Shown: one piece after another, positions 11,424-47,338 of the stretch
How positions within the stretch are numbered: the stretch's first letter is position 1
Layout: every line of letters begins with the position of its first letter
DNA from: Escherichia coli
Lineage (GTDB): Bacteria; Pseudomonadota; Gammaproteobacteria; Enterobacterales; Enterobacteriaceae
Direction: 5' to 3' (one strand)
Length of the DNA: 64,000 bases
NCBI RefSeq assembly: GCF_003018255.1
Contig: NZ_CP027440.1
The notes under the pieces: model-generated
Told to the model about the DNA's origin: nothing
The model's database searches: none
The model's input: the letters and a program-made list of their open reading frames with translations, nothing else
Made by a program: the position numbers and the translations under genes

Positions 11424-12974
11424 TTATTTGGCGACGTCCATGACTCGTTTAGTTAAGTCTGGGGTGACAGGTTTATGATTTTTGAAATAATCGATGATAG
11501 ATTCCGCCGAGGTTGTTCCCGGTATCGTCTTCACATTTTTTCCATTCAAAAATGCTTCAAAACCGTCACCACCACTGGCACAAAAGGAGTGCGTGGCAAT
11601 ACGATATGTTTGATTATCTTCCACGGGTTTGCCGTTAATGGTGAAAGAGATTAACCGTTGGTTGAGGGGTTTTTTGCTGTCATAGACAACCGCAACACTT
11701 TTAGAAACTTGTAACACACCGTTAGTTAGATTGGTTGCATGCGTCATCAATGATTTGAGATCGCGGCCCGTCAAATCCATCTCGATGAGGTCATTATTAA
11801 AGGGGAATGTGCTAATAACATCTCCCAGTGTGATATCGCCTTTAGGAAAATCAGCTCGAATCCCACCGCTATTTTGAAATCCGGCAACGGCATCAGGTGT
11901 TTTTTCCATCATTGCATCAAGAATAAGGTTGCCGGTAGAAGAGGAACTACCATACTCACGTGTTAAAACTACGGGAGAATGGCCGACAACTTCCTGTGTT
12001 ATTTTGTTAAGCTTTGCACTCCATTTATCAATAGTATTTTGAACGATGGTGTCAGGTTTAAATTGATCTGCAAAGATGGTGATTAACTCACCATTATAAC
12101 TGTCAATTTTCTTCGTTTTCGGATTGTAATCAAGCACAAGTTTTCCGATGTTGGTGCCGTATGCATCGGTAGATACAATTAATGTGTTATTAACTTTTAT
12201 TGGTTGCGGTGTTCCGACATGTGCGTGACCGGTAATTAAGACATCAACACCATTCACTTTTTTAGCTGTCTCAATATCTGCCTGTAGTAGCCGCTCCACA
12301 TCTTTACTACCAAAGCTTGATTGACGCGCCGGGACACCTTCGTGAATTAGCAAAACGGTAATGTCGACTTTACCTTTTAATTCTGCAAGTGCTTTATTTA
12401 AATATTTAATTTCGTCTCTGGCTTCTACGCCTTCACGTGCTTTTGCCGCGACTGTATCATAGAAAGCGAATGCGCCATGCAATCCAATCACACCAATCTT
12501 TAAACCATCTTTTTCGATAATGGTCCACGGATGATCCCAAACTGGTTTATTCGTATCGGTGTAGTAGATATTTCCCAGCAGAATGGGGAATTTTGCTTTT
12601 GATAACTGAGACACCATATTGGGCACACCGTGATCGAACTCGTGATTACCAACAGACACCGCATCAAAGGGCATAGTGTTCATGATATCAATAATAGCCT
12701 CACCTTTGGTCAGGGTGCTGATATACGGCCCGGTAAAATAGTCGCCTGCATCAAAGAAAAACACATCTTTGCTTTTTTTCTTCGCTTCATTAACGATGCC
12801 TGAAATATTAGCCATACCACCTATAAGTCTGTTCTTATCAACAGCGATGATTTTTGCTGGATTGACATGTGCGTGAATGTCATTCGTATAATAAATAGTA
12901 ACGTCCTGAGCTAGAACACTGTGAGAAAATATCACGCCGAATATGACTGATAATGTTGTAAATACAGTTTTCAT
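11424..12974 (-). CDS. Exported bifunctional metallophosphatase/5'-nucleotidase (UshA/CpdB family), paralog B
   Basis: Signal peptide MKTVFTTLSVIFGVIFSHSVLA; motifs [30 protein letters not shown]; AGGAGG SD just upstream (alternative start 12977). Only 34 bp from paralog A, so probably co-transcribed. Confidence 0.85.
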   Translation of the reverse strand: MKTVFTTLSVIFGVIFSHSVLAQDVTIYYTNDIHAHVNPAKIIAVDKNRLIGGMANISGIVNEAKKKSKDVFFFDAGDYFTGPYISTLTKGEAIIDIMNTMPFDAVSVGNHEFDHGVPNMVSQLSKAKFPILLGNIYYTDTNKPVWDHPWTIIEKDGLKIGVIGLHGAFAFYDTVAAKAREGVEARDEIKYLNKALAELKGKVDITVLLIHEGVPARQSSFGSKDVERLLQADIETAKKVNGVDVLITGHAHVGTPQPIKVNNTLIVSTDAYGTNIGKLVLDYNPKTKKIDSYNGELITIFADQFKPDTIVQNTIDKWSAKLNKITQEVVGHSPVVLTREYGSSSSTGNLILDAMMEKTPDAVAGFQNSGGIRADFPKGDITLGDVISTFPFNNDLIEMDLTGRDLKSLMTHATNLTNGVLQVSKSVAVVYDSKKPLNQRLISFTINGKPVEDNQTYRIATHSFCASGGDGFEAFLNGKNVKTIPGTTSAESIIDYFKNHKPVTPDLTKRVMDVAK

Positions 12975-13017
12975 CATCCCTCCTGGATAGGGTGTGTTAC
13001 ATTTGTTGAATTATTTA

Positions 13018-13040
13018 AATAAAAGACACATCGTGTCTTA
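13018..13040 (-). terminator. Hairpin terminator downstream of the cysteine-rich protein gene
   Basis: aaagacacatcgtgtctt hairpin with T-tract on the minus strand, in an AT-rich spacer. Confidence 0.4.
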
Positions 13041-13206
13041 TTTTATGTAAGCATAGTTCAGAAAAGTATTGTGTGATCTTAGTAACAAATAATGTTATTA
13101 ATTAAACATTGACCATGATTATATTTCACGGTCATACATTTATATATTTAATTAAATGAAAGGTAGTGTTCTCTCTTAATTTATGGTCGTTTGTCGAGTG
13201 TATTGA

Positions 13207-14360: not shown

Positions 14361-14463
14361 ATTTTGTCCGGCAACTATCCCCTGCAGATGTGATTACTCT
14401 CACATAAATAAGTCTTTCAGAACGTAATGTAGCAATCCTTTATCTCACTGAAAGGGATTGTTT

Positions 14464-16017
14464 ATGAAAATTAAAATACTTGCTGCGGGTATCGCATTAA
14501 CACTGCCGTTCTGGGCTTGCGCTAAAGATGTCACTATTATTTATACCAACGACCTCCATGCGCATGTAGAACCTTATAAAGTGCCGTGGATCGCTGACGG
14601 TAAACGGGATATTGGCGGCTGGGCAAATATCACTACGCTGGTTAAGCAAGAAAAAGCAAAAAATAAAGCGACATGGTTTTTTGATGCGGGCGACTATTTT
14701 ACCGGGCCATATATCAGCAGCCTGACCAAAGGTAAGGCTATTATCGATATTATGAATACTATGCCGTTTGATGCCGTCACGATAGGCAACCATGAATTTG
14801 ACCACGGCTGGGACAACACATTATTACAGTTGAGTCAGGCAAAATTCCCGATTGTGCAGGGCAATGTTTTTTATCAGAACAGCAGTAAATCATTCTGGGA
14901 TAAGCCCTATACCATCATCGAAAAAGACGGTGTGAAAATAGGCGTTATAGGTTTGCACGGTGTATTTGCCTTTAATGACACAGTATCTGCTGCCACGCGA
15001 GTGGGTATTGAGGCGCGTGATGAAATTAAATGGCTACAACGTTATATCGATGAACTTAAAGGCAAGGTTGATTTGACCGTCGCCCTGATCCATGAAGGTG
15101 TTCCGGCCCGCCAGTCCAGTATGGGAGGCACAGATGTGCGTCGCGCGCTGGATAAAGATATTCAGACGGCAAGTCAGGTGAAAGGGCTGGATATTTTGAT
15201 CACCGGACATGCACATGTGGGTACGCCGGAACCGATTAAAGTCGGCAATACGCTCATCCTCTCCACTGACAGCGGCGGGATTGATGTGGGCAAACTGGTT
15301 CTCGACTACAAAGAGAAGCCGCATAATTTTACGGTGAAAAACTTCGAGCTTAAAACCATTTACGCTGACGAGTGGAAGCCCGATCCACAAACGAAACAGG
15401 TGATCGACGGCTGGAATAAAAAGCTTGATGAAGTGGTGCAACAAACGGTGGCGCAATCGCCGGTTGAATTAAAACGTGCCTATGGTGAATCGGCTTCCCT
15501 CGGGAACCTGGCGGCTGACGCTTTACTGGTAGCGGCGGGTAAAAACACCCAATTGGCGTTAACCAACTCTGGCGGCATTCGCAATGAGATCCCCGCAGGG
15601 GCGATCACGATGGGCGGCGTCATCAGTACGTTCCCGTTCCCCAACGAACTGGTGACGATGGAACTCACGGGTAAACAATTACGCAGTCTGATGGAACACG
15701 GCGCAAGTTTAAGCAATGGCGTTTTACAGGTATCGAAAGGCCTGGAAATGAAGTACGACAGCAGCAAGCCGGTTGGTCAGCGGGTAATCACACTGACTCT
15801 GAATGGCAAACCCATTGAAGATGCGACGGTTTATCACATTGCTACTCAGAGTTTCCTTGCTGATGGTGGAGATGGTTTTACCGCCTTTACCGAAGGGAAA
15901 GCGCGTAACACAACGGGCGGTTATTACGTTTATCACGCGGTGGTTGATTACTTCAAAGCGGGCAACACCATTACGGATGAACAGCTCAACGGTATGCGCG
16001 TGAAGGATATCAAATAA
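14464..16017 (+). CDS. Exported (possibly lipoprotein) bifunctional metallophosphatase/5'-nucleotidase (UshA/CpdB family), paralog C
   Basis: Track start 14458 is TTG; ATG at 14464 follows AAGGGA. Signal peptide [22 protein letters not shown] (possible lipobox Cys); motifs [30 protein letters not shown]. Confidence 0.85.
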
Positions 16018-40350: not shown

Positions 40351-41724
40351 ATGGCACTTTGGGGCGGGCGTTTTACCCAGGCAGCAGATCAACGGTTCAA
40401 ACAATTCAACGACTCACTGCGCTTTGATTACCGTCTGGCGGAGCAGGATATTGTTGGCTCTGTGGCCTGGTCCAAAGCCCTGGTAACGGTCGGCGTGTTA
40501 ACCGCAGAAGAGCAGGCGCAACTGGAAGAGGCGCTGAACGTGCTGCTGGAAGATGTTCGCGCCAGGCCACAACAAATCCTTGAAAGCGACGCCGAAGATA
40601 TCCATAGCTGGGTGGAAAGCAAACTGATCGACAAAGTGGGTCAGTTAGGCAAAAAACTGCATACCGGGCGTAGCCGTAATGATCAGGTAGCAACTGACCT
40701 GAAACTGTGGTGCAAAGATACCGTTAGCGAGTTGCTGACGGCTAACCGGCAGTTACAATCCGCTCTGGTCGAGACCGCGCAGAACAATCAGGACGCGGTG
40801 ATGCCGGGTTACACTCACCTGCAACGCGCCCAGCCGGTGACGTTCGCTCACTGGTGCCTGGCCTACGTTGAGATGCTGGCGCGTGATGAAAGCCGTTTGC
40901 AGGACGCGCTTAAGCGTCTGGATGTCAGCCCGCTAGGCTGTGGCGCACTGGCAGGAACGGCCTATGAAATCGACCGTGAACAGTTAGCAGGCTGGCTGGG
41001 CTTTGCTTCGGCGACCCGTAACAGTCTCGACAGCGTTTCTGACCGTGACCATGTGCTGGAACTGCTTTCTGCTGCCGCTATCGGCATGGTGCATCTGTCG
41101 CGTTTTGCTGAAGATCTGATTTTCTTTAACACCGGCGAAGCGGGGTTTGTGGAGCTTTCTGACCGTGTGACTTCCGGTTCATCATTAATGCCGCAGAAGA
41201 AAAACCCGGATGCGCTGGAGCTGATTCGCGGTAAATGCGGTCGGGTGCAGGGGGCGTTAACCGGCATGATGATGACGCTGAAAGGTTTGCCGCTGGCTTA
41301 CAACAAAGATATGCAGGAAGACAAAGAAGGTCTGTTCGACGCGCTCGATACCTGGCTGGACTGCCTGCATATGGCGGCGCTGGTGCTGGACGGCATTCAG
41401 GTGAAACGTCCGCGTTGCCAGGAAGCGGCGCAGCAGGGTTACGCCAACGCTACTGAACTGGCGGATTATCTGGTGGCGAAAGGCGTACCGTTCCGCGAGG
41501 CGCACCATATTGTGGGTGAAGCTGTGGTGGAAGCCATTCGTCAGGGCAAAGCGTTGGAAGATCTGCCGCTCAGTGAGTTGCAGAAATTCAGCCAGGTGAT
41601 TGGCGAAGATGTCTATCCGATTCTGTCGCTGCAATCGTGCCTCGACAAGCGTGCTGCAAAAGGCGGCGTCTCACCGCAGCAGGTGGCGCAGGCGATTGCT
41701 TTTGCGCAAGCTCGGTTAGAGTAG
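40351..41724 (+). CDS. argH: Argininosuccinate lyase
   Basis: 457-aa [37 protein letters not shown]... Confidence 0.95.
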
Positions 41725-41764
41725 TTTGTTTATATTGCTCCCCTGAAAATGGGGAGCTTACCAC

Positions 41765-41818
41765 GCCTACAAAGTGCGACACTTCGTAGGCGGATAAGGC
41801 GTTTACGCCGCATCAGGC
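41765..41818. repeat. REP element downstream of argH
   Basis: gcctacaaagtgcgacacttcgtaggcggataaggcgtttacgccgcatcaggc; preceded by hairpin gctcccctgaaaatggggagc (41737-41757). Confidence 0.55.
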
Positions 41819-42221
41819 AGAAATTTGTCAGTATTCTGGTGACCTTAAATTTAACGCCCAACCAGAACCATTATTTGTCACATTCCTTTTTATTCTTGCG
41901 TCTTCTTTACCTTCACTCTCCCCATAAAAATTATATTTTCAATACATCAGCCAATACATACTTTAATTAATTGAATATAATTCATTTCTATTGCTGTGTT
42001 CATTTTTAATGATTAATGGAGTTTGTTATGTGATTATTTAACGTGTTGTTTTAACGATGATAGCTAATTATTCAGGTGGTTTTTGAGGGTGTTTTTTCTC
42101 CTCGGTAGAAATTTTTATTTTTAATGTGATCATGGTTGAATAATCGCTCTTTCTCTCTTGTATGGTAGTAGGCGCAAAATTAAGTTTGAAACGTCTATTT
42201 ACAACACAGGAGATTGCAATA

Positions 42222-43436
42222 ATGAAAATTATTGCTGCAGATGTTTTTGTTACTTGCCCAGGGCGTAATTTCGTTACGCTTAAAATAACCACTGCAAGCG
42301 GACTTTGTGGATTAGGAGATGCCACGTTAAATGGTCGCGAATTGTCGGTCGCTTCTTATCTGAAAGATCATCTTTGTCCACAACTAATTGGCCGCGATGC
42401 CAGCCGTATCGAAGATATCTGGCAATTCTTTTATAAAGGTGCTTACTGGCGACGTGGCCCCGTCACGATGTCAGCCATTTCTGCCATTGATATGGCGTTG
42501 TGGGATATCAAAGCAAAAGCGGCAAATATGCCATTGTATCAACTGCTTGGTGGTGCTTCTCGTGAAGGCGTTATGGTTTATTGCCACACCACCGGGCGTA
42601 CGATTGATGAAGTCCTTGAAGACTATGCAAAGCACCAGCAGATGGGCTTTAAGGCGATTCGTGTGCAGTGTGGTGTACCGGGTATGCAAACCACCTATGG
42701 TCTGGCGAAGGGCAAAGGACTGGCGTATGAACCAGCAACCAAAGGCCTGTGGCCAGAAGAGCAGTTGTGGTCTTCAGAAAAGTATCTCGATTTTACGCCG
42801 AAGTTATTTGAAGCGGTGCGTAATAAGTTCGGTTTTAACGAACATCTGTTGCATGACATGCACCATCGCCTGACCCCCATCGAAGCGGCGCGCTTTGGGA
42901 AGAGCATTGAAGATTACCGCCTGTTCTGGATGGAAGATCCGACGCCTGCCGAGAATCAGGAATGTTTTCGTCTGATTCGTCAGCATACCGTGACGCCGAT
43001 TGCGGTCGGTGAAGTGTTTAACAGTATCTGGGACTGCAAGCAGTTAATCGAAGAGCAGCTGATTGACTATATTCGCACGACGATTACCCATGCAGGCGGC
43101 ATTACCGGGATGCGACGGATTGCCGATTTTGCATCGCTTTATCAGGTACGTACCGGTTCGCATGGCCCTTCAGATTTATCGCCTGTTTGCCATGCGGCGG
43201 CGCTGCATTTTGACCTCTGGGTGCCAAACTTTGGCGTTCAGGAGTACATGGGCTATTCCGAACAAATGCTTGAAGTCTTCCCGCATAGCTGGCGCTTCGA
43301 TGAAGGTTATATGCACCCAGGCGATGAACCGGGGCTGGGTATTTCTTTCGATGAGAAACTGGCGGCGAAATATCCGTATGACCCGGCGTATCTCCCCGTC
43401 GCACGACTGGAAGATGGCACATTGTGGAACTGGTAA
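42222..43436 (+). CDS. Enolase-superfamily D-mannonate dehydratase-like protein (RspA/ManD paralog)
   Basis: Track ORF 42162..43436 trimmed to ATG 42222 after AGGAGA SD ([24 protein letters not shown]..., 404 aa); motifs [15 protein letters not shown] and FWMEDP; near-colinear with recalled K-12 RspA. Confidence 0.85.
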
Positions 43437-43502
43437 TAGCGGTTCGCTTAATTATTTTCTGAATATTCATCAAATCGATTAATTCCGCTCAAGGAGCTAA
43501 AA

Positions 43503-44786
43503 ATGGACGTTGATGTGTCAACCAGTGTTGCGGGTAATAAACCGCAACGGATTCGTCGTATTCAGACAGTGACCCTGGTTTTATTATTTATGGCGGGGAT
43601 CGTTAATTTTCTCGACCGTTCGTCATTGAGCGTGGCAGGTGAAGCAATTCGTGGCGAGTTAGGATTATCCGCTACCGAGTTTGGTGTTTTGCTTTCTGCA
43701 TTTTCTCTGTCTTATGGTTTTTCACAACTTCCTTCCGGTATTTTGCTAGACCGCTTTGGCCCACGAATAGTGTTAGGCGCAGGCTTAATATTCTGGTCAT
43801 TAATGCAGGCATTAACAGGAATGGTTAATTCTTTTAGCCACTTTATTTTAATGCGTATCGGTCTGGGTATTGGCGAAGCGCCATTTATGCCTGCGGGAGT
43901 AAAGTCGATCACCGACTGGTATGCGCAAAAAGAACGCGGCACGGCGCTGGGGATTTTTAACTCATCTACCGTTATCGGTCAGGCTATCGCGCCTCCTGCT
44001 CTTGTATTGATGCAACTGGCATGGGGCTGGCGGACGATGTTTGTCATCATCGGCGTAGCAGGGATTCTGGTTGGGATCTGTTGGTACGCGTGGTATCGCA
44101 ACCGGGCGCAGTTTGTCCTGACCGAGGAAGAACGGACATATCTCTCCGCGCCGGTTAAACCGCGTCCACAGTTACAATTTAGCGAGTGGCTGGCGCTGTT
44201 TAAGCATCGGACAACCTGGGGGATGATTTTAGGTTTCTCTGGCGTCAATTATACCGGTTGGCTCTACATCGCGTGGTTACCCGGTTATTTGCAGGCCGAA
44301 CAAGGTTTCAGTCTGGCGAAAACCGGTTGGGTGGCGGCAATTCCTTTCCTCGCGGCGGCGGTCGGGATGTGGGTTAACGGTATTGTTGTCGATCGGCTGG
44401 CGAAAAAAGGCTATGACCTGGCGAAGACGCGTAAAACGGCGATTGTCTGCGGTTTGATGATGTCGGCATTAGGCACGTTGCTGGTCGTGCAATCTTCCTC
44501 GCCAGCCCAGGCGGTAGCGTTTATCTCAATGGCGCTGTTCTGCGTGCATTTCGCGGGAACATCTGCATGGGGGCTGGTGCAGGTGATGGTGTCAGAAACA
44601 AAAGTGGCTTCCATCGCCGGGATTCAAAACTTTGGCAGTTTTGTTTTTGCTTCCTTTGCTCCGATCGTAACCGGTTGGGTCGTGGATACCACACACTCGT
44701 TTAATCTGGCGCTGGTTATCGCGGCCTGTGTGACGTTCACCGGGGCGCTGTGTTACTTCTTTATTGTCAAAGATCGGATTGAGTAA
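43503..44786 (+). CDS. MFS transporter, anion:cation symporter (ACS) type, probable hexuronate/aldonate permease
   Basis: 427-aa ORF after AAGGAG SD; 12-TM profile; resembles ExuT/GudP/DgoT-type acid-sugar permeases. Confidence 0.8.
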   Translation: MDVDVSTSVAGNKPQRIRRIQTVTLVLLFMAGIVNFLDRSSLSVAGEAIRGELGLSATEFGVLLSAFSLSYGFSQLPSGILLDRFGPRIVLGAGLIFWSLMQALTGMVNSFSHFILMRIGLGIGEAPFMPAGVKSITDWYAQKERGTALGIFNSSTVIGQAIAPPALVLMQLAWGWRTMFVIIGVAGILVGICWYAWYRNRAQFVLTEEERTYLSAPVKPRPQLQFSEWLALFKHRTTWGMILGFSGVNYTGWLYIAWLPGYLQAEQGFSLAKTGWVAAIPFLAAAVGMWVNGIVVDRLAKKGYDLAKTRKTAIVCGLMMSALGTLLVVQSSSPAQAVAFISMALFCVHFAGTSAWGLVQVMVSETKVASIAGIQNFGSFVFASFAPIVTGWVVDTTHSFNLALVIAACVTFTGALCYFFIVKDRIE

Positions 44787-44825
44787 CCGTTACTATCAGG
44801 CTCTCTTGCTGTGGGCCTGTAGAAT

Positions 44826-44942
44826 AAAAAAAAGCGGATCCTGGAGATCCGCAAAAGTTCACGTTGGCTTTAGTTATTCGAGTTGAGAAACTCTCGAAAC
44901 GGGCAGTGACTTCAAGGGTTAAAAGAGGTGCCGCTCCGTTTC
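44826..44942 (-). ncRNA. oxyS: OxyS small regulatory RNA
   Basis: Reverse complement reads GAAACGGAGCGGCACCTCTTTTAACCCTTGAAGTCA...GCGGATCTCCAGGATCCGCTTTTTTTT, matching recalled OxyS with its 3' terminator hairpin; divergent from oxyR. Confidence 0.85.
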
Positions 44943-45037
44943 TGTGAGCAATTATCAGTCAGAATGCTTGATAGGGATAATCGTTCGTTGCTATGCTACC
45001 TATCGCCGCGAACTATCGTGGCAATGGAGGATGGATA
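44943..45037. promoter_or_regulatory. oxyS/oxyR divergent promoter region with OxyR binding site
   Basis: Intergenic between oxyS 5' end and oxyR start; position inferred from the known architecture, motifs not individually verified. Confidence 0.5.
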
Positions 45038-45955
45038 ATGAATATTCGTGATCTTGAGTACCTGGTGGCATTGGCCGAACACCGCCATTTTCGGCGTGCG
45101 GCAGATTCCTGCCACGTTAGCCAGCCGACGCTTAGCGGGCAAATTCGTAAGCTGGAAGATGAGTTGGGTGTGATGTTGCTGGAGCGGACCAGCCGTAAAG
45201 TGTTATTCACCCAGGCGGGAATGCTGCTGGTGGATCAGGCGCGTACCGTGCTGCGTGAGGTGAAAGTCCTTAAAGAGATGGCAAGCCAGCAGGGCGAGAC
45301 GATGTCCGGACCGCTGCATATTGGTCTGATTCCCACGGTTGGACCGTACCTGCTACCGCATATTATCCCGATGCTGCACCAGACCTTTCCAAAGCTGGAA
45401 ATGTATCTGCATGAAGCACAGACCCACCAGTTACTGGCGCAACTGGACAGCGGCAAACTCGATTGCGTGATCCTCGCGCTGGTGAAAGAGAGCGAAGCAT
45501 TCATTGAAGTGCCGTTGTTTGATGAGCCAATGTTGCTGGCTATCTATGAAGACCATCCGTGGGCGAACCGCGAATGCGTACCGATGGCCGATCTGGCAGG
45601 GGAAAAACTGCTGATGCTGGAAGATGGTCACTGTTTGCGCGATCAGGCAATGGGTTTCTGTTTTGAAGCCGGGGCGGATGAAGATACACACTTCCGCGCG
45701 ACCAGCCTGGAAACTCTGCGCAACATGGTGGCGGCAGGTAGCGGGATCACTTTACTGCCTGCGCTGGCTGTGCCGCCGGAACGCAAACGTGATGGGGTTG
45801 TTTATCTGCCATGCATTAAGCCGGAACCACGCCGCACTATTGGCCTGGTTTATCGTCCTGGCTCACCACTGCGCAGCCGCTATGAGCAGCTGGCAGAGGC
45901 CATCCGCGCAAGAATGGATGGCCATTTCGATAAAGTGTTAAAACAGGCGGTTTAA
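45038..45955 (+). CDS. oxyR: LysR-family oxidative-stress regulator OxyR
   Basis: Track ORF 44993..45955 trimmed to [40 protein letters not shown]... (305 aa). Confidence 0.95.
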
Positions 45956-47338
45956 GCCATTTAGCGCAGCTACCCGATAGGCTTCCGCCATCGTCGGGTA
46001 GTTAAAGGTGGTGTTGACGAAGTACTCAATAGTGTTGCCGCCACCTTTCTGTTCCATAATCGCCTGACCGATATGAATAATTTCGGCAGCGCGCTCGCCA
46101 AAGCAGTGAATACCCAGAATCTCTTTTGTTTCCCGATGGAACAAAATTTTCAGCGTGCCCACGTTCATGCCGACGATTTGTGCACGTGCCAGATGTTTAA
46201 ACTGGGCGCGGCCCACTTCATATGGCACTTTCATCGCGGTCAGCTGCTGTTCGGTTTTGCCCACAGAGCTGATTTCCGGGATGGTGTAAATACCGGTAGG
46301 GATATCTTCAATCAGATGTGCGGTGGCTTCACCTTTCACCAGCGCCTGCGCGGCAATGCGCCCCTGGTCATAGGCCGCCGACGCCAGGCTCGGATAACCA
46401 ATCACGTCGCCCACCGCGTAAACGTGCGGCTGTGCGGTCTGATACATGCTGTTGACCTTCAGCTGTCCGCGGCTGTCAGTTTCCAGCCCAATGTTCTGTA
46501 ACGCCAGCGAATCGGTATTACCGGTGCGACCGTTGGCATAGAGCAGGCAGTCAGCTTTCAGTTTTTTACCCGACTTCAAATGCATGATCACACCGTCGTC
46601 ACAGCCTTCGATCTTCTCGTACTCTTCGTTGTGACGAATCACTACGCCACTGTTCCAGAAGTGATAGGAGAGAGAATCTGACATCTCTTGATCGAGAAAT
46701 GCCAGCAGGCGATCGCGGGTGTTGATCAGATCCACTTTTACATCCATACCGCGGAAGATCGACGCATATTCACAGCCGATCACTCCAGCACCATAGATAA
46801 GTACATGGCGCGGTTCGTGGTGCATGCTAAGAATTGAGTCGCTGTCGTAAATGCGTGGATGCGTGAAATCAACATCTGTTGGATGATATGGACGAGAGCC
46901 GCAAGCAATAACAAATTTTTCAGCGGTTAGTGTCTCGACGCTGCCGTCCGGGCAATCCAGCGCCAGCGTGTGCTCGTCAACAAAGCGAGCGTTCCCCTGC
47001 AATATTTCACAGTGATTACGTTCGTAAAATCCCTGACGCATGCGCGTTTGTTGATTAATCACGTTATCGGCATGGTTAAGGATATCGGCAAAAGAAGAGC
47101 GGAGCAGTCGCGAATGGTCGCTGTAAAGTGGGTTTTGATTAAATTCTATAATGCGGCTGACGGCGTGACGGAGAGCTTTCGACGGGATGGTGCCCCAGTG
47201 GGTGCAACCGCCGCCAACATTTTGATAACGCTCGATAACTGCGACGCGCGCACCTTGCTTAACCAGGCCCATTGCAGCGCCTTCGCCGCCGGGGCCGGAA
47301 CCTATTACTATGGCATCGTAATCGTAGGAATGTGGCAT
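45938..47338 (-). CDS. sthA: Soluble pyridine nucleotide transhydrogenase
   Basis: 466-aa [27 protein letters not shown]... (FAD/NAD Rossmann motifs); 3' end overlaps oxyR convergently by 18 nt. Confidence 0.95.

Follow-up and report, generated by a model that had tools for sequence, protein, structure and literature searches.

An accessory manD–MFS operon of Escherichia coli and its AT-rich upstream stretch, a probable control region with a diverged rspA-type promoter

In the Escherichia coli DNA studied here (64 kb; "the window" denotes this whole stretch of DNA), argC, argB and argH are followed on the + strand by a hairpin, a REP element, an AT-rich stretch, the dehydratase gene manD and an MFS transporter gene, after which come oxyS on the opposite strand, oxyR and sthA (Table 1). 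The AT-rich stretch, positions 41820–42221, lies between the argH REP element and the start of manD. The manD product matches the NCBIfam ManD equivalog NF043051 at 731 bits against a cutoff of 550, and is 91–94% identical to RspA-type dehydratases across the Enterobacterales, while the gene shares about 80% DNA identity with E. coli rspA. Translation starts at 42222, in agreement with RefSeq, and not at the first ATG of the open reading frame at 42162, as supported by the MKI(I/V) start of all homologues. The transporter scores 276.6 bits against TIGR00893, under the family cutoff of 395, and its orthologues (84–89% amino acid identity) adjoin rspA in Enterobacter, Citrobacter, Raoultella, Pluralibacter and Lelliottia. 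The order is MFS–rspA–rspB in the first four of these genera (loci L006, L014, L060 and L076) and rspA–MFS–rspB in Lelliottia (L024); the E. coli cassette follows the Lelliottia arrangement but lacks rspB.

In E. coli K-12 the cassette is absent and argH lies only about 54 bp from the oxyS 3′ end, which implies that a manD–MFS cassette of about 3.1 kb has been inserted in the strains that carry it. By megablast with 41725–42222 as query, these are 1872 of 5426 complete E. coli genomes (about 35%), every copy being chromosomal and adjoining manD; Escherichia whittamii has the cassette at the same locus too. Carriers include the B2 strain S88 and strain 104/JNE23-011, the latter identical to the window. 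The original prediction that the region was horizontally acquired agrees with this accessory distribution, and its remark that no regulator gene is linked holds for the short manD–MFS island, where the gene order at the window locus includes none. A longer island of about 12.5 kb occupies the same argH–oxyS locus in about 140 complete E. coli genomes (e.g., L003, NZ_AP022221.1, 4701500–4725000). It carries araD, a DeoR/GlpR regulator, a sugar ABC transporter (SBP, ATPase and two permeases), an L-ribulose-5-P 3-epimerase and an FGGY kinase, followed by the same manD–MFS pair. The argH–oxyS spacer therefore varies as an integration spot, with no fewer than three states: short, long and empty. 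Strain JNEC-KY179 (L089, NZ_AP045176.1) has manD annotated as a pseudogene with a frameshift, a sign that decay of the cassette is under way in some lineages at least.

At the left border, the argH stop codon (41722–41724) is followed by a hairpin which, having no U-tract, is not a canonical intrinsic terminator; a terminator scan called nothing at the argH 3′ end, where K-12 has a different, canonical terminator. The REP sequence at 41789–41818, GGCGGATAAGGCGTTTACGCCGCATCAGGC, belongs to an imperfect palindrome of about 35 nt of the GCC(G/T)GATGCG...CGCATC(C/A)GGC type, and Rfam gives a sub-threshold match to the REP-derived naRNA4 at 41788–41868 (27.6 bits). Copies of its 36-nt core exist elsewhere in E. 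coli and in E. whittamii, and the element is partly deleted in strain Ecol_881. The stretch had been placed at 41820–42221, between the REP element and the dehydratase gene; the location is right, except that the first ten or so bases still belong to the REP element. At the other end of the cassette, 46 bp (44787–44832) lie between the end of the MFS gene and the 3′ end of oxyS, which is convergent with it. The oxyS terminator hairpin has no T-run on the + strand, and manD–MFS read-through could therefore run antisense into oxyS.

Table 1. Coordinates of the features at the manD–MFS locus and, where determined, the share of variable alignment columns among seven short-island sequences
Feature	Position	Strand	Variable columns (%)	Remarks
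Hairpin CTCCCC-tgaaaat-GGGGAG	41738–41756	+		read from the sequence; just 3′ of the argH stop; no U-tract
ORF 1	41749–41970			73 aa; starts within the REP zone
REP-type palindromic element(s)	41765–41818	+		left border of the AT-rich stretch
Distal spacer	41830–42017		24.7	GC 0.287; no conserved site
Block A	42018–42056		2.6	1 of 39 columns variable; also identical in the long-island form
Linker with phased T-tracts	42057–42107		27.5	predicted bend peaks here
T-tracts and CRP-type site	42108–42146		7.7	
CRP-type site	42121–42142	+		left half TGTGA (42125–42129) perfect; right half TTGAA weak (2/5)
Operator, −35, −10 and UTR	42147–42221		10.7	
RspR-footprint core CTTGTATGGTAGTAG	42157–42171	+		overlaps the −35 hexamer; invariant
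Predicted −35, TTGTAT	42158–42163	+		overlaps the RspR-footprint core
Predicted −10, TAAGTT	42181–42186	+		17-bp spacer from TTGTAT; by homology
Predicted 5′ UTR	42192–42221	+		30 nt; predicted start C42192; Shine-Dalgarno AGGAG at 42208–42212
ORF 2		antisense		85 aa; GTG start; overlaps the manD start
ORF 3				in-frame upstream extension of manD
manD	42222–43436	+		404 aa; D-mannonate dehydratase, enolase superfamily, RspA paralogue; RefSeq annotation
manD first and second codon positions			3.0	
manD third codon positions			22.8	
MFS transporter gene	43503–44786	+		427 aa; D-galactonate transporter family; second cassette gene
oxyS	44833–44942	−		Rfam RF00035, 139.5 bits; right border of the inserted cassette

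The stretch had been described as markedly AT-rich and free of credible genes, and both descriptions are borne out. Composition computed across the window is far from uniform: at 0.308, the GC content of 41820–42221 falls below the 0.511 of the whole window, no more than 0.1% of the 402-bp windows in the 64 kb are as GC-poor, and the absolute minimum for windows of this size (0.301) falls at 41846–42247. Ten A4/T4 tracts occur against a window-wide mean of 3.7 (2.7-fold; top 1.2%), and the A/T string quoted in the earlier description, ttaattaattgaatataattcatttctattg, is located at 41963–41993. The AT-richness is confined to the upstream region, for manD (GC 0.498) and the MFS gene (0.509) stand at the host average. 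The second-lowest GC stretch of the window (0.311) is found at 12786–13187, over the 5′ end and upstream region of a 517-aa 5′-nucleotidase-like ORF (11424–12977, minus strand); a paralogous 519-aa ORF lies at 14458–16017 on the + strand, and a cysteine-rich 374-aa ORF lies between the two.

Only three ORFs of at least 20 aa fall in the stretch (Table 1). In other strains they are cut short or poorly preserved in translation, so that none is conserved, and none is annotated in seven RefSeq genomes. An Rfam E-value search of 41000–46000 returned only oxyS and the sub-threshold REP-like match, and RNA folding of the stretch revealed no excess stability over shuffled sequences on either strand (z = −0.21 on the + strand and −0.10 on the − strand). 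A generic promoter and terminator scan gave no + strand match in the stretch. Its sole promoter-like match, on the minus strand at 42002..41974 (TGAACA, 17 nt, TATATT), overlaps a palindrome, TGAATATAATTCA (41972–41984), and neither is conserved in other strains. Our literature search found no paper on the regulation of the manD–MFS cassette or on H-NS at its locus.

Because the manD product is so close to RspA-type dehydratases, the upstream DNA was compared with the mapped K-12 rspA promoter and with 80 rspA/manD promoters of the Enterobacterales, which reach genera as distant as Pectobacterium, Budvicia, Rahnella and Hafnia. The proximal 100 bp of the stretch contain the same elements at the same spacing as the rspA promoters. 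The K-12 promoter rspAp reads TTTTTGTGATCACTCCGGCTTTTTTCGATCTTTATACTTGTATGGTAGTAGCTCAGTTGCGTAGATTTCATGC...ATG and the window promoter TTTAATGTGATCATGGTTGAATAATCGCTCTTTCTCTCTTGTATGGTAGTAGGCGCAAAATTAAGTTTGAAAC...ATG, while the consensus of the 80 promoters is tattttGTGATC-N8-attttt.gaTcattATACTTGTATGGTAGTag...gtAa.Ttt. In both rspAp and the window, TGTGATC is followed after 25 nt by the core CTTGTATGGTAGTAG lying over the −35 hexamer, and the T of TGTGA and the C of CTTG are 32 nt apart. The distance to the −10 element is 17 nt, where about 18 is expected, and GTATGG stands 62 nt from the ATG, compared with 63 nt in K-12 and a typical range of 61–64 nt. The window hexamer TAAGTT aligns with TAGATT of K-12 rspAp and with TAAATT or TAAGTT of other genera, giving a −10 of the TAnnTT type throughout. 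Each of the two window hexamers matches the sigma-70 consensus at only 3 of 6 positions, and the poor −35 explains why a generic scan does not call the manD promoter.

In K-12, rspA transcription starts at a C 30 nt upstream of the ATG (PMC8249747). The same spacing from the −10 element to a C is found in the window, which would place the manD start at C42192, with some 360 bp of the stretch preceding it. The stretch had been called a long leader; the homology to the rspA promoter, implying a 5′ UTR of only about 30 nt, speaks against a long transcribed leader.

On these grounds the proximal promoter is, from sequence comparison, paralogous to the well-studied promoter of rspA, though diverged, and the gene downstream is likewise related, the manD protein being 92% identical to RspA. 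Several differences from K-12 rspAp are nevertheless apparent. The manD promoter has TCTC in place of ATAC, the left half of the RspR box, has lost the second TTTTTnGATC repeat, and has a spacer of 17 rather than 18 bp between its hexamers. Upstream of its CRP-type site it carries some 300 bp of unrelated AT-rich DNA that includes an extra invariant block, whereas the entire ynfA–rspA spacer of K-12 measures 205 bp. The operon partner is the MFS gene instead of rspB, and the candidate regulator gene, rspR, lies elsewhere on the chromosome. As a further observation on the rspA-type promoters (L006–L085, e.g., L085 4230–4190, minus strand), they possess two direct repeats TTTTnnGATC, 21 bp apart, one being the CRP-type TGTGATC and the other, TTTTTTGATC, standing directly before ATAC. 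They thus have two GATC (Dam) sites two helical turns apart, of which the manD copy keeps the first only (42128–42131).

The K-12 promoter rspAp is described as having known RspR and CRP sites (bioRxiv 10.1101/2025.05.13.653802). In the window, the half-site TGTGATC (42125–42131) belongs to a CRP-type site centred about −60 from the predicted start, which may be compared with the 22-bp AAATGTGATCTAGATCACATTT-like site near −61.5 of class I promoters. By position it is the homologue of TTTTGTGATC, a conserved element of rspA promoters, and it stands 32 nt from CTTGTATGG, as in K-12 rspA. A scan of the whole window with the CRP consensus gave 204 matches against 224 expected; with matches at chance level, the call cannot be made from the sequence by itself and is based on positional homology to rspAp. 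We infer from this homology that CRP occupies the manD promoter.

The second conserved element concerns RspR (YdfH), a GntR-family regulator that in K-12 protects 31 bp centred on ATACnnGTAT and whose mutation derepresses rspAB (PMC8249747). The sequence CTTGTATGGTAGT is present exactly at 42157–42169, with no other match in the 64-kb window even when two mismatches are allowed. This core is invariant in the 80 Enterobacterales promoters and, in K-12, lies inside the published RspR footprint. The 12-mer CTTGTATGGTAG has a single match in the window and 94 exact matches in the 80 loci, against about 0.1 expected (about 2 Mb, both strands of related loci). All matches are co-oriented and lie 50–150 nt upstream of rspA/manD or linked sugar-acid genes, the targets comprising rspA/manD, orthologues of the cassette MFS gene, YdfI-like oxidoreductase, rspB-like and other sugar-acid transporter genes. 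At least 46 loci that bear the 12-mer also contain a linked rspR gene. Taken together, the distribution of the 12-mer and the linkage of rspR provide comparative evidence that the motif is an RspR operator fused to the −35 element. The conserved site extends to 16 nt, ATACTTGTATGGTAGT, almost invariant across the Enterobacterales promoters, so that the published 10-bp box covers only part of it. In other genera the 16-nt block also precedes MFS, YdfI-like, rspB-like, GPH-type transporter and binding-protein genes; in L005–L085 it stands some 60–150 nt in front of rspA/manD and the genes next to them. RspR, called a single-target regulator in K-12, thus probably controls a multi-operon regulon in other genera, as judged from these sequences.

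The site in the window departs from the published palindrome. At 42154–42163 it reads TCTCTTGTAT, with three mismatches to ATACnnGTAT, all in the left half, where TCTC (42154–42157) replaces ATAC, and no other match to the box with fewer than two mismatches occurs in 41820–42230. Sites without ATAC (nnTCTTGTATGGTAGT) are also found in front of MFS and ydfI-like genes of several genera, and the conservation of this form, nTTCTTGTATGGTAGT, indicates that the window site is likely functional, perhaps with lower affinity. Close counterparts are the MFS promoters next to rspA in the set comprising Enterobacter (L006), Citrobacter (L014), Raoultella (L060) and Pluralibacter (L076). They share nTTCTTGTATGGTAGT with the window, preceded by TGTGATC at the same distance, and their transporters are orthologous to that of the cassette (86–89% amino acid identity). 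They differ in that the site precedes the transporter gene there and manD in the cassette, and in that MFS–rspA–rspB occupies the native ynfA/speG locus with rspR a few kb away, while the cassette sits at argH–oxyS without rspB or rspR. Binding of RspR at the ATAC-less site of the window is what this comparison suggests, and the missing half of the palindrome may make repression weaker than at rspA. All but nine of the 5426 complete E. coli genomes (5417) have rspR itself, unlinked to the cassette; with rspR in the core genome and far away, the cassette could do without a regulator gene inside it.

It had been proposed that the stretch may hold the regulatory sites of the cassette, and a promoter, a CRP-type half-site and an RspR-footprint core can indeed be placed there by homology to the mapped rspA promoter. 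The suggested search for UxuR/ExuR-type operators was fruitless: the best match in 41820–42230 has 4 mismatches in 12 to the TTGGTATACCAA type, which we take to be the UxuR/ExuR consensus. Scans of the stretch for UxuR/ExuR, ARG box, IHF and H-NS motifs gave no convincing match. The relevant GntR-family regulator would be the core-genome RspR rather than UxuR or ExuR.

Constraint along the stretch was estimated as the fraction of variable columns among seven short-island sequences, from six E. coli lineages and E. whittamii (Table 1). The distal ~190 bp evolve at a neutral rate, indistinguishable from that of manD third codon positions. Identity to E. whittamii is in line with this, at 82.5% in the distal part, 90.7% in the proximal part and 82–83% at manD third positions. 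The palindrome TGAATATAATTCA inside the distal spacer is strain-specific. Between the long and short islands, manD is 98.8% identical, the proximal 204 bp 87% and the distal part only about 50–60%, high similarity beginning only at 42018. Still, the distal part is homologous to the long-form spacer (local score 28 versus 10.6 ± 1.5 in shuffles), and the AT-richness of the spacer has been retained between the island forms despite the turnover of its sequence.

Just where that similarity begins lies Block A, GGA(G/A)TTTGTTATGTGATTATTTAACGTGTTGTTTTAAC, about −135 to −175 from the predicted start, which is constrained about as strongly as the first two codon positions of manD. A second copy of the ATGTGAT(T/C)AT motif of the CRP-type site occurs in it, 96 bp upstream of the first, together with a direct repeat, TTTAACG, with a 13-nt period. 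No match was found to Block A among the TF consensus sequences scanned, and comparison of Block A and the distal part with the 80 loci (blastn with word size 7, and 11-mer sharing) revealed nothing systematic beyond the promoter core, and for Block A no homologue among the rspA promoters of other genera. Block A is a candidate upstream operator or activator site. Its beginning (42018–42033) also reads GGAG-N6-ATG-TGA, a Shine-Dalgarno sequence with a start–stop mini-ORF conserved across eight sequences, which is relevant only if the region is transcribed.

We conclude, with a probability of roughly 0.6, that 41830–42221 is the upstream control region of the accessory manD–MFS operon and that its proximal part is a diverged rspA-type promoter. 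In this promoter, sigma-70 RNA polymerase would use the weak −35 TTGTAT and −10 TAAGTT and start at about C42192. The CRP-type half-site near −60 would make the promoter dependent on cAMP-CRP, in class I geometry, and the RspR repressor would occupy the conserved CTTGTATGGTAGT core over the −35 hexamer. Further upstream, a bent T-tract linker, the 39-bp Block A and about 190 bp of neutral AT-rich spacer would follow one another. Block A probably binds a further factor, and functional DNA would otherwise be limited to the promoter-proximal part.

Compatible with this control-region reading, and in our judgement less likely than not, is the possibility that the stretch is a xenogeneic, AT-rich and curved promoter region which H-NS/StpA coats and silences, keeping the cassette normally off. 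The stretch has the lowest GC content of the window (0.308, 0.1 percentile), an A/T-tract density in the top 1.2%, and an AT-richness kept between island forms that are only about 50–60% identical; its cassette is accessory. The curvature computation that had been called for gave a mixed answer. There is a local bend with a maximum of 35.7 degrees near 42087–42120, above the window 99th percentile of 25.6, whereas the mean over the stretch, 11.4 degrees, barely exceeds the background of 9.7; the wedge model uses dinucleotide parameters that we assume, and these figures are only indicative. The AT-richness, moreover, extends over only about 400 bp, the genes manD and MFS having a GC content of 0.50, unlike typical H-NS-silenced islands, and the best matches to the H-NS high-affinity motif TCGATAAATT in the stretch carry two mismatches. 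With H-NS-silenced regions such as bgl, proU and pathogenicity islands, the locus shares an accessory cassette, AT-rich upstream DNA with A/T tracts and a predicted bend; it differs from them in that its genes are not AT-rich and in that it has no good high-affinity motif. From its composition, H-NS silencing of the stretch is plausible.

A more elaborate proposal joins these elements. By means of a "half-operator" version of the rspA promoter, the cassette would have come under the core RspR/CRP circuit, and a Block A operator together with AT-rich bent DNA, possibly acting through H-NS or looping, would give regulation distinct from that of rspAB. We consider this tentative and, on balance, doubtful.

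Unlikely, in our view, is that manD–MFS has little promoter of its own and is transcribed mainly by read-through from argCBH, which would place the cassette under ArgR control. Cassette strains have a U-tract-less hairpin and a REP element in place of the canonical K-12 argH terminator, and without such a terminator read-through could contribute to manD transcription. However, the proximal promoter blocks are under purifying selection and keep the full rspA-type promoter geometry; this selective constraint argues that manD has its own promoter. REP elements, in addition, commonly attenuate read-through. An ARG box was considered at the palindrome TGAATATAATTCA, which adjoins the arg operon, and rejected, as its centre has 3 nt instead of 4 nt and it is broken in 4 of 7 sequences.

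The idea that the stretch is a scar, i.e., the remains of a decayed gene or the junction of a deletion that trimmed a larger island to manD–MFS, is very improbable. It could appeal to the long island held at the same locus by about 140 genomes and to the onset of high similarity only at 42018. Yet the distal part has a homologous counterpart in the long form, the non-coding 488 bp that separate manD from the FGGY kinase gene, which indicates that the distal part was already intergenic in the ancestor and is neither a deletion scar nor a fused remnant, and no coding remnant was detected by blastx against all ORFs of 90 loci. For a decayed gene in particular, blastx of 41830–42160 against the 7283 ORF fragments of all loci gave self-matches only.

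Least credible of all is a long transcribed 5′ leader, or an sRNA, riboswitch or leader peptide controlling manD, which the length of about 400 nt, the lack of a linked regulator and the start–stop sequence of Block A might recall, since the rspA homology puts the start 30 nt before the ATG, no credible sigma-70 promoter lies upstream on the + strand, and structured RNA or a leader peptide is ruled out by the Rfam result (nothing in the stretch besides the REP-like match), folding energies equal to those of shuffles on both strands, and the absence of any conserved ORF.

The AT-rich, gene-free stretch is therefore a real but ordinary feature, and nothing in it challenges current understanding. 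The practical value is modest though concrete; the coordinates predicted for the manD promoter are exact enough for experimental follow-up. The motif behind the "single-target" RspR of K-12 would be the 16-nt block ATACTTGTATGGTAGT, almost invariant across the Enterobacterales, which refines the published 10-bp box. For E. coli, the analysis suggests how an operon without a regulator gene, carried by about one third of strains, many of them extraintestinal pathogenic B2 strains, can be regulated through the core regulators CRP and RspR.
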